From assembly GCF_016026235.1 (NCBI RefSeq), contig NZ_CP065613.1: a stretch of 64,000 bases of DNA. One strand, 5' to 3'. Each line of letters opens with the position of its first letter. Positions within the stretch are counted from its first letter, which is position 1. A model generated the notes under the pieces. It was not told the origin of the DNA. It saw only the letters and a program-made list of their open reading frames with translations, and made no database searches. This stretch comes from Escherichia coli. Lineage in GTDB: Bacteria > Pseudomonadota > Gammaproteobacteria > Enterobacterales > Enterobacteriaceae. This document shows positions 37,394 to 43,768 of the stretch, piece after piece. A program made the position numbers and the translations under genes.

Positions 37394-37918
37394 TCAAGCA
37401 TCTCCAACCTCTTTAACGGTAACTGTCTGTGCCTCCAGTTCTGCTATGCGCTTTTCTGAGGCTTCAAGTAACGCCTGCTTATCGCGTAGCGCTTCTTCCA
37501 GTTCAGCAACATGGCATTCACTATCAATAAGGTTGTTCTCTGCTGCTTCCAGCTCAACACGCAACTTCCCTACCGTTAGCGCAATTTCCTCGTTCTCCTG
37601 ATCGCGGCTTTTGATGTATTGCAGGTTTCTTTCCCGTTCATCCAGTAGTGCCAGCGCAACATTTGGATTAAAAGCAGCAATAAATTCAGCGTTTGCATAA
37701 GCCTGAACATCTGTTTCAACCAGGCAGTTAACATGACATTCCGCAATCACACCACCGGGTTCTCCTTTCCATTTTTGACAAACAAAAACTCCTGTTAAAT
37801 TGCCGTGCTGGTTAACAGATGTATGCCCTACGATGTAGCTCCCTTTAGTTGCCTGCTCTGCCGCCTCACGCAGTGCCTGATAGTCAATCTTGCTCACTGG
37901 TTGCCTCCTTTGCGCCAC
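37394..37918 (-). CDS. Ea22-like early-left protein
   Basis: 174 aa with C-terminal coiled coil; DNA in 37440-37640 resembles the lambda ea22 region as recalled. Confidence 0.55.
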
Positions 37919-38071
37919 ATCGCATTCAGATATTTGTTGTCATTAACAGAACCGAAACTCTTTCTCTTAAGCAATTCCTCTCTCGATGGCATTGGCTTTA
38001 CGCGTTGGCGAATAATCATTTCTGCCGGAAGAATGCCGGGATTGTATGCAAGTCCTCTCATGGTAAATTCC

Positions 38072-38368
38072 TCAGTCATTACTGGTAGCGCCATAGCGTG
38101 AGCGGTAATTACGCAGGCGCGGGTCGATATATTCAGGGAATTTGTCTATTGTCGCTTTTCGCAACGGTCTCATTGCTGTTTCGTTTGTTCGGTCCTTCTC
38201 CTGTTTTAGCGCGAGTTGTATATCGCGTCGGTACATCCGTTCTGCTTTTGTTTCTGGTTTCAGAGCAAGAAACGCGTCGAAATTGTTTTTGATATTTTCC
38301 AGCACCTCCGCCTTGGAGCTACCGGAGCAGTTGCGCGGGTCATCCGCACCATACAGAGGCGCTGGCAT
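38072..38368 (-). CDS. Hypothetical prophage protein
   Basis: 98 aa ORF. Confidence 0.4.
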
Positions 38369-38391
38369 AATGGGAGCCTTATTTTCAGTAA

Positions 38392-38979
38392 TCAGAAAGG
38401 AGGGTAATCGTTCTGGCTGTAACCATAATCATCTGCATGATTATGGCTTACGTTTTTAGAGCGATTGTCTTTATCTTTGAGGCTGCCAACCATGTTGGCG
38501 ATAGTTTCTGGTTGCTTGCCTTCCGCCTTTTCTTTAAGGGTTTGACCTGTTTGTGCAATAAACGGGATGCGTATTTCCATCTGGTAGCTGTCTGCGCCAG
38601 TCTTTTTGTTTGTGGTTAATACTTTCTGGAGCACTAACCCGATTTTCTTTCCATGAAATTCAGGAGCAACAAATTTACTGGCGGAAACCATATGTTGCGT
38701 TAACTGCTTAATCCCAACACACCCCATCATGGCATGAACGACGTTTGCACCAAACTTGTTTTCCGTTCCGTCATTTTTCTGAACACAAACGCTAAGATAT
38801 TGGATTTTACGTCCGTCGTCGGATTCGCCAGAAAGCTCAATAAATTTTGCGCCTTTTTCTGATTGCTTTAGTTCTGCTTCAGTAATGGTAATGATATGAG
38901 CGCCAGTTTCGTTAATAAAACCACCTTGCCCTGCGGTCAGTGCTGCTTCTTCGTTATAAGTAAAAATCACGTTGCTCAT
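38392..38979 (-). CDS. DUF669-like protein (putative ssDNA-binding partner of Sak4-type recombinases)
   Basis: 195 aa ORF immediately downstream of and overlapping the AAA ATPase gene. Confidence 0.45.
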   Translation of the reverse strand: MSNVIFTYNEEAALTAGQGGFINETGAHIITITEAELKQSEKGAKFIELSGESDDGRKIQYLSVCVQKNDGTENKFGANVVHAMMGCVGIKQLTQHMVSASKFVAPEFHGKKIGLVLQKVLTTNKKTGADSYQMEIRIPFIAQTGQTLKEKAEGKQPETIANMVGSLKDKDNRSKNVSHNHADDYGYSQNDYPPF

Positions 38980-39656
38980 GCGGCGTTTTCCTTAATTTGA
39001 TGAACATTATTGATGCCGTAGTAATCACAAACAGTGGCATCGACGAAAGAGAGATCGTTATCAATCTCATTGGAGTCAAACATTCCCATTGGGGATTTAA
39101 CAGTGTCTGCACCGTTGTTTTTCGTGGTGAAAAAGAACTGGTCATCACGGGTAAGGGTGCGAAGAACTATAGTAAACATGCCTTCGACAGTGATTTTCTC
39201 GTCCAGCATTTTTCCTATAGTTTTCATTTTCACGCGCCCCATAGGGGTTTCTTCGGTGTGCGCAAGAAAATAGACTCTCAGGTCATCTGGCGCATCCTGT
39301 GCAGCCTTAATCACCTCCCATGCGTGGCGGCCTATCTCAGTAAATTTATCAAACGATTTTTCTTCTGAGCGGCGCATAAACTCATTGCTCATCACATACT
39401 GGAAGTCATCAACAATAACGATTCTTTTCCCGTATTCGTGAGCACGCTTAATTACGGCAACTATTACGCCCCATTTATCAGTGGTAACTACGGTTCCTTT
39501 TTTTGCTCTGGCATCCCATGCCAGCCAGTCTTTTGATTTAAATGGCAGCGGCTTGCCTATTGGTTTTATAAGTATTGCTTCCTCTGGATTGATATTTCTC
39601 ATGCTGGTTGATTTTCCGGTGCCAGATTCACCGAGTATTAATGTCGCAGTTCCCAT
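38976..39656 (-). CDS. Sak4-like RecA-fold ATPase (phage recombination/annealing protein)
   Basis: 226 aa with Walker A ILGESGTGKST and Walker B-like IVIVDDF; occupies the position of lambda exo/bet. Confidence 0.6.
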   Translation of the reverse strand: MGTATLILGESGTGKSTSMRNINPEEAILIKPIGKPLPFKSKDWLAWDARAKKGTVVTTDKWGVIVAVIKRAHEYGKRIVIVDDFQYVMSNEFMRRSEEKSFDKFTEIGRHAWEVIKAAQDAPDDLRVYFLAHTEETPMGRVKMKTIGKMLDEKITVEGMFTIVLRTLTRDDQFFFTTKNNGADTVKSPMGMFDSNEIDNDLSFVDATVCDYYGINNVHQIKENAA

Positions 39657-39664
39657 AATTTGCC

Positions 39665-39865
39665 TCAGAATGGTAATTCGGATGGGGTGGAAAGAAATTC
39701 GCGCTCATTCATGCGCTCTCTTTGCGCCTGCCATAAGCAAAGTTGTTTCTTTGATTTATCTCCCGCTTTACGCCAGTAACGAGCCTCAGCAATGTGATAC
39801 TCTCTTTTTAATCGACTTAACTCTGGGGTTTTCGCCAGTTCTACCGGAATCATTTTGACCTCCAT
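39665..39865 (-). CDS. Hypothetical small prophage protein
   Basis: 66 aa ORF. Confidence 0.35.
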   Translation of the reverse strand: MEVKMIPVELAKTPELSRLKREYHIAEARYWRKAGDKSKKQLCLWQAQRERMNEREFLSTPSELPF

Positions 39866-39948
39866 TTTTTATAAGCGTCGACGGCTTCACGAAACATCTT
39901 TTCATCGCCAATAAAAGTGGCGATAGTGAATTTAGTCTGGATAGCCAT
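39850..39948 (-). pseudogene. kil: kil remnant (host-killing FtsZ inhibitor), codons 6 onward; codons 1-5 (MDQTL) lie at 41216-41230 on the far side of the IS600-like element
   Basis: MAIQTKFTIATFIGDEKMFREAVDAYKKW... matches lambda Kil from residue 6; the ATA target duplication rejoins to give MDQTLMAIQTKF. Confidence 0.75.
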
Positions 39949-39992
39949 ATGAGGTGTACTGGCAATAGCGGACACTACCATTTGTTCTTTTT

Positions 39993-40811
39993 TTAAGCAG
40001 CCATCTGATGATATTTTTCCCTGAAGGCTGCCGGGGAGATATTCCCCAGACGAGAGTGACGACGCTGACGATTGTAGAAAATCTCAATGTATTCCCGTAT
40101 TACTGAGATGGCCTCATTCCGGCTCTTAAAACGATAGTGGCTCAGGCTCTCATTTTTCAGCGTTCCCCAGAAGCTTTCCATCGGAGCGTTGTCGTAACAG
40201 TTACCTTTACGCGACATTGATGTTTTCAGACCAGACTGCTCCTGTATGACCCGGTAATCGTATGCGCAGTACTGTGAACCTCGATCGGAGTGGTGGATTA
40301 GCCCGGCAGGTGGGCGCTGGCTCCTGAGCGCCATAAACAGGGCTTTACCTGTCAGCTCTTTTGTCATGCGCTCTCCCATGGCGTAGCCGACAATTTCGCA
40401 CGTATAAACATCTTTGATGCCAGCGAGGTACAACCATCCCTCCTGTGTGGCAACATACGTCAGGTCCGCCACCCAGACCTGATTTGGTGCTGTAGGAGCG
40501 AACGTCTGGTTCAGCAGATTTGGCGCAACTGGCAGATTGTGGTTCGAGTTCGTAGTCGCTCTGAACTTGCGTTTCTGCTTACAGCGTAGCCTTAGCTCCT
40601 TACGAAGACGTGCCAGTCGGTCACGACCAACGATGATGCCATTCTCTGCCAGCTCCGTCTGGAGCCGCCGGGTTCCATATGTTTCGCGAGTGCGGATATG
40701 TGCCACCTTAATCTCCAGTTTTAGCCGCTCATCACTTTGTTTTCTGTCTGAGGGTTCATGCTGTACCCAGTTGTAATAACCGCTCCTGGATACACCAAAT
40801 ACCCGACACAT
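39993..40811 (-). CDS. IS3-family transposase OrfB (DDE)
   Basis: 272 aa rve-domain ORF. Confidence 0.85.
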   Translation of the reverse strand: MCRVFGVSRSGYYNWVQHEPSDRKQSDERLKLEIKVAHIRTRETYGTRRLQTELAENGIIVGRDRLARLRKELRLRCKQKRKFRATTNSNHNLPVAPNLLNQTFAPTAPNQVWVADLTYVATQEGWLYLAGIKDVYTCEIVGYAMGERMTKELTGKALFMALRSQRPPAGLIHHSDRGSQYCAYDYRVIQEQSGLKTSMSRKGNCYDNAPMESFWGTLKNESLSHYRFKSRNEAISVIREYIEIFYNRQRRHSRLGNISPAAFREKYHQMAA

Positions 40812-40846
40812 CGCTTCAATGGGAAATTGTTGTCGCCATTGTTCGA

Positions 40847-41149
40847 TTAACGCGTATTTTTCAGCGACTCCTGTGCAAAATACGCTGTTGCTTTTTTTAA
40901 TATATCTCGCTCAAGGCGAGCTTCATTTAACGCCTTACGCAGTTGCAGAATTTCAGATTCCAGTTCAGCCACCGTGCGGGAACCAGGAGTACCGAGCCCT
41001 TTTCTGGCGGCGGTAACCCATTGTCCTAAAGTGCCTTCAGGAAGGGATAATCGGGAAGCGCCTTCACTGATCGAAAGTTGATTTTCAAGAACCGTTCTGA
41101 CAGCTTCGGCTTTGAACTCTTTAGAGTAACGTTGGGTTTTTCTGCTCAT
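40847..41149 (-). CDS. IS3-family transposase OrfA (HTH)
   Basis: 100 aa MSRKTQRYSKEFKAEAVRTVLENQLSISEGASRL... Confidence 0.85.
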   Translation of the reverse strand: MSRKTQRYSKEFKAEAVRTVLENQLSISEGASRLSLPEGTLGQWVTAARKGLGTPGSRTVAELESEILQLRKALNEARLERDILKKATAYFAQESLKNTR

Positions 41150-41210
41150 TATTAGCTCCTTCTGATGCCATTCTATTTCAGGAAGGAGTGTCCGTTAAAC
41201 TCAGGCTACC

Positions 41211-41363
41211 TCAATAAGTGTTTGATCCATTCTTTGGGACTCCTGGCTGATTAAGTATGTCGATAAGGCGTTTCCATCCGTCACGTAATTTACGGGTGAT
41301 TCGTTCAAGTAAAGATTCGGAAGGGCAGCCAGCAACAGGCCACCCTGCAATGGCATATTGCAT
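41211..41363 (-). CDS. cIII: cIII (FtsH inhibitor), last 4 codons replaced by a stop inside the IS inverted repeat
   Basis: MQYAIAGWPVAGCPSESLLERITRKLRDGWKRLIDILNQPGVPKNGSNTY-stop; lambda cIII continues GYPD. Confidence 0.8.
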   Translation of the reverse strand: MQYAIAGWPVAGCPSESLLERITRKLRDGWKRLIDILNQPGVPKNGSNTY

Positions 41364-41462: not shown

Positions 41463-41705
41463 TTAATCAGCAATAAACTCTTCTGGTAATTTATCAACTA
41501 TTTGATGACTTATTATCAGCCATTTGCCATCCTTCGTTTCGTATGCATATTTCTGGTCTTTTATCATCATGTGTTCAGCTACTGCCTTAACTGCCTGTTC
41601 GGTTACATCTTCTTTCTTTCCCACCCACATTCCTTTTTCAGTGTTTAATGTTCCTTGAAAAATACGACCACTTAATGGGCTTGCGCCCATAGTTTTTACT
41701 CTCAT
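41463..41705 (-). CDS. Hypothetical early-left protein between N and cIII
   Basis: 80 aa ORF. Confidence 0.4.
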   Translation of the reverse strand: MRVKTMGASPLSGRIFQGTLNTEKGMWVGKKEDVTEQAVKAVAEHMMIKDQKYAYETKDGKWLIISHQIVDKLPEEFIAD

Positions 41706-42184: not shown

Positions 42185-42342
42185 CACCTTCAATGGTGGT
42201 CAGTGCGTCCTGCTGATGGCTAAATAGTACGATTTGTACTTTATCGAGTCAATACAAAATGTTCTAAATATAATTAGTTTCTTATAACGCTTTGTATTTA
42301 ATGGGTTTATATTTTGGAAAAAGAAAACCCGACACTAAGGTC

Positions 42343-43768
42343 TAATGCCGATCAGTTAAGGATCAGTTGACCGATCCAGTGGCTGTGTAAGAATCCGGAA
42401 ACGCTCACTTGTTTCCGGATTTTTTTATGCACATTGGACAGGCTCTTGATCTGGTATCCCGTTACGATTCTCTGCGTAACCCACTGACTTCTCTGGGGGA
42501 TTACCTCGACCCCGAACTCATCTCTCGTTGCCTTGCCGAATCAGGTACTGTAACGCTACGCAAGCGCCGTCTTCCCCTCGAAATGATGGTCTGGTGTATT
42601 GTTGGCATGGCGCTTGAGCGTAAAGAACCTCTTCACCAGATTGTGAATCGCCTGGACATCATGCTGCCGGGCAATCGCCCCTTCGTTGCCCCCAGTGCCG
42701 TTATTCAGGCCCGCCAGCGCCTGGGAAGTGAGGCTGTCCGCCGCGTGTTCACGAAAACAGCGCAGCTCTGGCATAACGCCACGCCGCATCCGCACTGGTG
42801 CGGCCTGACCCTGCTGGCCATCGATGGTGTGTTCTGGCGCACACCGGATACACCAGAGAACGATGCAGCCTTCCCCCGCCAGACACATGCCGGGAACCCG
42901 GCGCTCTACCCGCAGGTCAAAATGGTCTGCCAGATGGAACTGACCAGCCATCTGCTGACGGCTGCAGCCTTCGGCACGATGAAGAACAGCGAAAATGAGC
43001 TTGCTGAGCAACTTATAGAACAAACCGGCGATAACACTCTGACGTTAATGGATAAAGGTTATTACTCACTGGGACTGTTAAATGCCTGGAGCCTGGCGGG
43101 AGAACACCGCCACTGGATGATACCTCTCAGAAAGGGAGCGCAATATGAAGAGCTCAGAAAACTGGGTAAAGGCGATCATCTGGTGAAGCTGAAAACCAGC
43201 CCGCAGGCACGAAAAAAGTGGCCGGGACTGGGAAATGAAGTGACAGCCCGCCTGCTGACCGTGACGCGCAAAGGAAAAGTCTGCCATCTGCTGACGTCGA
43301 TGACGGACGCCATGCGCTTCCCCGGAGGAGAAATGGCGGATCTGTACAGTCATCGCTGGGAAATCGAACTGGGATACAGGGAGATAAAACAGACGATGCA
43401 ACTGAGCAGGCTGACGCTGAGAAGTAAAAAGCCGGAGCTTGTGGAGCAAGAGCTGTGGGGTGTCTTACTGGCTTATAATCTGGTGAGATATCAGATGATT
43501 AAAATGGCGGAACATCTGAAAGGTTACTGGCCGAATCAACTGAGTTTCTCAGAATCATGCGGAATGGTGATGAGAATGCTGATGACATTGCAGGGCGCTT
43601 CACCGGGACGTATACCGGAGCTGATGCGCGATCTTGCAAGTATGGGACAACTTGTGAAATTACCGACGAGAAGGGGAAGGGCCTTCCCGAGAGTGGTAAA
43701 GGAGAGGCCCTGGAAATACCCCACAGCCCCGAAAAAGAGCCAGTCAGTTGCTTAACTGACTGGCATTA
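42343..43768 (+). mobile_element. IS4 (1426 bp) with 12-bp target duplication gacactaaggtc
   Basis: Terminal inverted repeats taatgccgatcagttaagga.../...ttaactgactggcatta; identical 12-mer at 42331-42342 and 43769-43780. Confidence 0.88.
42409..43755 (+). CDS. IS4 transposase
   Basis: 448 aa DDE transposase ORF filling the element. Confidence 0.88.

Follow-up and report, generated by a model that had tools for sequence, protein, structure and literature searches.

Which recombination system does a lambda-like prophage encode when lambda's exo, bet, and gam are missing from their place in the leftward operon? This question is raised by a locus in a 64,000-nucleotide stretch (the window) of the Escherichia coli contig NZ_CP065613.1 (assembly GCF_016026235.1), where two overlapping minus-strand open reading frames (ORFs) occupy positions 38392-39656. 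An initial annotation, made from the letters alone, had read them as a RecA-fold, Sak4-like ATPase and a DUF669-like partner standing in for the lambda Red genes. According to our analysis, the pair belongs, with a probability of about 90%, to an HK620-type recombination module, hkaM-sak4-ssb-abc2, situated in the pL operon of a lambda-like prophage and carried there as an intact, probable passenger. The Sak4-SSB finding is thus correct but ordinary: the system has already been characterised, and the lambdoid prophage around it is decaying.

Identification of the Sak4 and SSB genes

The first gene of the pair, sak4 (38976-39656, minus strand), is a homologue of hkaL of phage HK620 and is preceded by a GAGG Shine-Dalgarno sequence 8 nt 5' of its ATG. 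It is predicted to encode a core-only, RecA/Rad51-like ATP-dependent single-strand annealing protein of 226 amino acids (aa), identical to HkaL (AF335538) at 224 of 226 positions (99%). In PHROGs, residues 1-220 matched phrog_2872, 'Sak4-like ssDNA annealing protein' (E=1e-107; ssDNA, single-stranded DNA), and in the Pfam search the protein passed AAA_24 (PF13479) with 29.4 bits, just above the gathering cut-off of 27. The translation contains a Walker A motif, GESGTGKS, at residues 9-16 (39609-39632, minus strand), and a Walker B motif, IVIVDD, at residues 79-84 (39405-39422, minus strand). When Sak4 was aligned with 43-54% identical homologues from Aeromonas, Shewanella, and Vibrio phages, residues G9, S11, G12, G14, and K15 of the former motif and D83 and D84 of the latter were invariant. 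Sak4 gave no meaningful NCBIfam match and no PDB sequence match, and an hhalign comparison of its profile with ORF28 of the Lactobacillus phage phiAT3 aligned the P-loop only. An AlphaFold model based on a 6-sequence alignment was of low confidence (predicted local distance difference test, pLDDT, 59.8); the folds closest to it were those of RecA, RAD51 paralogues, the staphylococcal-phage Sak4 8rc5, and RadB, a set consistent with the published RecA-core assignment. For this family, the term core-only denotes the lack of a secondary DNA-binding domain of roughly 70 residues. The initial reading of this ORF as a RecA-fold ATPase with Walker A and B motifs is supported by the motifs, the family matches, and the near-identity to HK620 Sak4.

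The second gene, ssb (38392-38979, minus strand), is a homologue of HK620 hkaK, whose product is also called 'SSB-HK620' or 'SSB-2'; its start overlaps the sak4 stop by 4 bases, ATGA, so both the coordinates and the overlap of the pair were described accurately. The 195-aa product, an ssDNA-binding protein (SSB) and the predicted partner of Sak4, is identical to HkaK at 189 of 195 positions (97%) and matched phrog_743, 'single strand DNA binding protein' (E=5.5e-65). Its C-terminus reads ...DDYGYSQNDYPPF, the last 15 residues being the same as in HK620; these include the NDYPPF tail (residues 190-195; 38395-38412, minus strand), which is the Sak4-recruiting motif. The AlphaFold model of the SSB reached a pLDDT of 76, with 85-92 in the core, contained an OB-fold core, and matched OB-fold ssDNA binders in the fold search. 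No PDB sequence match and no meaningful NCBIfam match was obtained, and the canonical bacterial SSB family (Pfam PF00436) gave no match to this protein at E<=10, the OB fold alone being common to both. We conclude that the gene encodes an atypical OB-fold SSB that falls outside the canonical bacterial SSB family.

The DUF669 label requires qualification. Hutinet et al. (2018) stated that HkaK corresponds to Pfam DUF669 and is an SSB, and their HHsearch analysis, with a probability cut-off of 95%, tied HkaK to N4 gp45 and to the SSBs of Lc-Nu and phiAT3 (PMC5928155). Homologues of the window SSB are mostly named 'DUF669 domain-containing protein' in NCBI and UniRef. The top BFVD Foldseek match of the SSB model was likewise a DUF669 domain-containing protein (E=3.3e-14), and about 10 further proteins of that name followed with E-values of 2e-5 to 4e-4. 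The model also matched the SSBs of Vibrio phage phi50-12 and Roseobacter phage RD-1410W1-01, both of which we take to be N4-like. By contrast, the current Pfam DUF669 hidden Markov model (HMM; PF05037, gathering cut-off 21 bits) gave no match to the SSB at E<=10, nor to six of its homologues at E<=1. The model was present in the searched library, since phiAT3 ORF29 matched it with E=1.6e-11. When a 22-sequence HkaK-family profile was compared with phiAT3 ORF29 by hhalign, the result was not significant (E=0.069, probability 0.8%). The AAA_24 and DUF669 pairs of Firmicutes phages, such as phiAT3 ORF28/ORF29, resemble the window pair in that an ATPase gene is followed by a small SSB gene, whereas the sequence similarity between ORF29 and the window SSB lies below what the Pfam DUF669 HMM detects. 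We conclude that the SSB is related to DUF669 by fold and not by the Pfam HMM. Of the two HMM searches that the initial annotation had suggested, the one for Sak4/AAA_24 was positive and the one for DUF669 negative; its partner assignment stands on literature, database naming, and fold. As the HMM gives no match, 'DUF669-like' is worded with the right strength, and the protein is better named 'cognate SSB'.

A related SSB was observed in a different setting. The Stx2 phages P13374 (locus L008, 1067-3588), TL-2011c, and ArgO145 carry an HkaK-type SSB with about 86% identity over residues 1-189, which is located directly after gam-recT-exo and not after sak4, and whose last six residues are YGSDSF instead of NDYPPF. 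It seems that the SSB core is common to different recombinase partners while the tail is swapped.

Organization of the module in place of lambda Red

The pair is accompanied by two further genes of the same module. The first gene is hkaM-like (39665-39853, minus strand), with a product of 62 aa when counted from a GGAGG-preceded Met, the ORF itself reaching 39865; the product matched phrog_1723 (E=3.5e-33) and is identical to HK620 HkaM at 61 of 62 positions (98%). The fourth gene is abc2, encoding anti-RecBCD protein 2 (38072-38368, minus strand; 98 aa), which matched phrog_656 (E=5.5e-44) and covers the full Pfam profile PF11043 (positions 1-97 of 97, 118.6 bits, E=1.3e-34), with 60% identity to Abc2 of HK620. 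Neither Abc2 nor HkaM gave a meaningful NCBIfam match. All four ORFs are full-length and have good Shine-Dalgarno sequences, and their order after kil (hkaM-like, sak4, ssb, abc2) is that of HK620. Abc2 is followed by a DUF2737 gene (37894-38094) and the Ead/Ea22-like gene (37394-37918; PF13935, E=5.5e-38).

Among the ORFs of 37394-39981, no match to the Exo, Bet, or Gam families was found in Pfam or PHROGs; for this reason, and because of the equivalent location, the module can be said to occupy the gam-bet-exo position of lambda. The proposed substitution of Red by the pair was therefore upheld, as was its placement between the Ea22-like gene and kil, although the interval holds more than the pair, namely the DUF2737, abc2, and hkaM-like genes. 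In the same way, the claim of a different recombination module was right as to its being non-Red and missed both the membership of Abc2 and HkaM and the prior characterisation of the system.

Sak4-then-SSB pairing recurs, at 32-54% identity, in phages of Aeromonas, Shewanella, and Vibrio, and the adjacency of sak4 and ssb was seen in five distant phages, phiAT3 included; according to published work, up to 80% of sak4 genes have a cognate ssb next to them.

Proposed mechanism

Experimental work on HK620 has described HkaL as a monomeric, RecA-core-only Sak4 that binds ssDNA solely with ATP, anneals complementary strands, and promotes low-level oligonucleotide recombineering without strand exchange (PMC5928155). 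In the same work, HkaK was an ssDNA-binding, apparently tetrameric protein that strongly stimulated Sak4 in vivo and in vitro via NDYPPF, and when this motif was deleted, recombineering fell 10-fold and Sak4 no longer bound ssDNA coated with SSB (PMC5928155). Modules of the HK620 type lack a nuclease gene, and Abc2 is a RecC-binding protein that blocks activation at Chi (PMC12315714). The mechanism was shown for HK620 proteins that are 97-99% identical to those of the window, and we infer it for the window alleles from this near-identity. ssDNA would be coated by the tetrameric atypical SSB, and the NDYPPF tail of the DNA-bound SSB would recruit monomeric Sak4, which would need ATP for ssDNA binding and would anneal complementary SSB-coated strands. 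The expected outcome would be the annealing of single strands and recombineering with oligonucleotides, without strand exchange. Abc2 would act on RecC to block RecBCD activation at Chi, as opposed to the outright block imposed by Gam. During lytic growth, such modules would serve recombination-dependent replication, concatemer formation, and mosaic exchange.

Comparison with known systems and distribution

The closest described counterpart is the hkaM-hkaL(sak4)-hkaK(ssb)-hkaJ(abc2) segment of HK620 (Clark et al. 2001; PMC5928155), which agrees with the module of the window in gene order, in product lengths (62, 226, 195, and 98 aa), in the ATGA overlap, and in its location after kil. The window differs from HK620, a P22-like podovirus, in its lambda-type background (int, N, cIII), in the IS600 located just upstream of the module, and in the defective state of the prophage. 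HK629, a Lambdavirus, shows the same arrangement, gene sizes, and ATGA overlap in a lambda-like genome, and across kil-hkaM-sak4-ssb-abc2 its DNA, like that of JEP4 and of Stx1a- and Stx2a-converting phages, has 97-99% identity to the window; in the annotated stretches inspected, namely the HK629 locus and the feature list of the JEP4 match, the operon contains no insertion sequence (IS). Lambda Red (gam-bet-exo) and the P22 system (arf-erf-abc1-abc2) occupy the same operon position and likewise combine an annealing protein with a RecBCD modulator, P22 also having abc2. In contrast to the Rad52-like Beta or Erf of lambda and P22, the annealing protein of the window is a RecA/Rad51-core ATPase, and the HK620-type system differs further in needing ATP and a dedicated SSB and in encoding no exonuclease (PMC12315714).

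The 2-kb segment 38000-40000 was at least 80% covered in 65 phage records, with identity up to about 97%, including JEP4, TL-2011a, and many Stx2a-converting phages. The tblastn matches of Sak4 in phage records included JEP4, HK629, and Stx1a- and Stx2a-converting phages. In complete E. coli genomes, the 1265-bp pair was covered to at least 80% in 178 of 5426, always in the chromosome. The window thus offers an example of cassette swapping of lambdoid Rec modules, with an HK620-type module in a lambda-type genome, and a further natural allele of the Sak4-SSB pair for recombineering, which differs from that of HK620 by 2 and 6 substitutions. It also provides a correct annotation for genes that many RefSeq and GenBank records still list as 'ATP-binding protein' or 'hypothetical protein'. 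That a non-Red recombination module was recognisable from raw sequence in a first-pass reading deserves mention, while the wider importance of the finding is small.

The pL operon, IS600, and the state of the prophage

The leftward operon is composed of pL, nutL, N, DUF7446, cIII, IS600, kil, hkaM, sak4, ssb, and abc2, in this order. The promoter scan placed a pL-like promoter, TTGACT-17-TACTAT, at 42224-42252 (minus strand; consensus match only), downstream of which the nutL boxB GCCCTGAAGAAGGGC is located; nutL and pL are intact. The lambda-type N gene (42042-41716, minus strand) is also intact, and the DUF7446 gene (41463-41705, minus strand) lies between N and cIII. The IS600-like insertion that the initial annotation had placed upstream of the module was confirmed at base resolution as IS600 of the IS3 family (39950-41213, minus strand; 1264 bp), with orfA at 40847-41149 and orfB at 39993-40811. 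The element is bounded by imperfect 27-bp terminal inverted repeats and a 3-bp TAT target duplication and is oriented as pL; its transposase matched NCBIfam transpos_IS3 (E=5e-100), and matching copies are annotated as IS600 in RefSeq.

The insertion site of IS600 is the cIII/kil overlap, upstream of the module. The cIII gene (41214-41363, minus strand) is truncated after codon 50 of 54, its leftover GYPD* codons being found beyond the IS at 39932-39946. The kil remnant (39850-39948, minus strand; PF06301 Lambda_Kil, E=1.2e-17) has been separated from its first five native codons (MDQTL) and its native ribosome-binding site. A simple scan found no minus-strand terminator-like site within IS600, and a scan of the IS600 right end found no promoter-like site directed into kil. 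In view of these results, expression of the module would need N-antiterminated read-through from pL.

The kil/IS600 junction had no identical copy in complete E. coli genomes, and the sole high-coverage record has IS600 elsewhere. In the Shiga toxin-producing E. coli (STEC) strain 6629 (locus L011, 3358-4514), an IS600 of the same orientation is likewise present in the pL operon, at a site lying about 250 bp farther upstream, and is followed by an intact cIII-kil-hkaM-sak4-ssb-abc2 segment; this insertion is independent. An annotation listing places IS600 beside the same module in several other STEC genomes. That IS600 was inserted ahead of the toxic kil gene may be the result of selection for a tamed prophage. 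It is very unlikely, in our estimation, that the insertions at two sites represent selected kil-silencing that left Sak4-SSB-Abc2 at low expression, from the IS or by read-through, as a host-domesticated, RecA-independent annealing system; were this so, the domesticated pathway would promote IS- and prophage-mediated genome rearrangement.

Other parts of the prophage are also damaged. The lambda-type int gene (32877-33946, minus strand) is split into two ORFs by a single G missing next to 33622 and, this base aside, has the same sequence as the intact copy in E. coli FDAARGOS_943, which makes it a frameshift pseudogene. A copy of IS4 (42343-43768; 1426 bp, with the 12-bp target duplication GACACTAAGGTC) sits in the hairpin AACCCGAC...GTCGGGTT, which carries a T-run and is situated directly after the cI stop, resembling the tIMM terminator. 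The possibility that IS4 destroyed pL was rejected, as the element interrupts the hairpin of the terminator that follows cI and has left both nutL and the pL-like promoter untouched. Since the prophage is otherwise decaying while the coding sequences and ribosome-binding sites of the module are intact, the module is probably a still-intact passenger that is not actively used.

Alternative explanations

Several points weigh against the assignment of an intact HK620-type module. The fold matches of Sak4 can add little because of the pLDDT of 59.8. The allele differs from HK620 at two Sak4 positions (D43 and G63) and six SSB positions, and Abc2 shares only 60% of its residues with its HK620 counterpart. 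IS600, which destroyed the native kil start and the cIII end, may be polar on the module. Given the frameshift in int, induction of the prophage probably yields no viable phage, and useful expression of the module may never occur. It could also be asked whether the pair is a recombination system at all, given that many database records name its members only 'ATP-binding protein', 'DNA binding ATPase', or 'hypothetical protein', that the AAA_24 score is marginal (29.4 against 27), that the 195-aa protein lacks any Pfam or NCBIfam match, and that neither protein has a PDB sequence match. A generic P-loop 'DNA-binding ATPase' next to an unrelated 195-aa protein is nevertheless extremely improbable: for proteins that are 99% and 97% identical to these two, ATP-dependent annealing, binding of ssDNA, and recombineering in vivo have been demonstrated, and the fold matches of the window pair are RecA-like and OB-fold. 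The identity to the characterised HK620 proteins refutes the notion that the pair consists of unrelated proteins.

With the HK620-type identity of the genes retained, their expression and their role may still be read differently. The module could be a silent relic whose ORFs are intact only because decay is recent and which IS600 polarity has severed from pL, a view that we hold to be possible, though only tentatively. The position of IS600 between pL and the module, where it has destroyed the 3' end of cIII and the 5' end of kil, speaks for it, as do the 1-bp frameshift in int, the IS4 in the cI-proximal terminator, and the lack of a promoter-like site out of the IS600 right end in the scan. 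On the other hand, the four ORFs are full-length with good Shine-Dalgarno sequences, the scan found no minus-strand terminator-like site within IS600, and antiterminated transcription could cross the element because N and nutL are intact; moreover, silence would concern expression only and would leave the gene identities unaffected. Alternatively, Sak4 and SSB might serve mainly in phage DNA replication and multimer formation, with annealing as the underlying activity. Such a role has been reported for Sak4 of Staphylococcus aureus phages (Neamah et al.), Rec modules have been linked to the theta-to-sigma replication switch (PMC12315714), and the AAA_24/DUF669 pair of phiAT3 is situated directly upstream of replication genes. 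We consider a predominantly replicative function rather unlikely here; it is compatible with annealing and bears on the physiological role of the HK620-type lambdoid pair.

Integration site and other prophage regions

The closest relative for both the host flank and the module is E. coli FDAARGOS_943. The left junction of the prophage (32760-32830) is not at lambda attB (ybhC-ybhB), the site used by the prophage in this relative; instead, the host flank is composed of aceE-aceF-lpdA-yacH. Homology to yacH stops at about 32807 in ...CTTATCAGTAAGTTG and is followed by the lambda P'-arm sequence ACATTATAAAAAAGCATTGCTTATC, as judged by comparison with what we take to be the lambda attP sequence. 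The arrangement suggests that Int integrated the prophage at a secondary att site within yacH that has only TAAGTTG in common with the core. Two ORFs between xis and the Ea22 region (34227-34850 and 35172-35894, minus strand) are an intact AntA/P22_AR_C antirepressor-like gene and a 240-aa ORF without a Pfam match. In the prophage of FDAARGOS_943, the antA-like gene at the corresponding place is interrupted by IS600 and followed by an ORF6N-domain gene.
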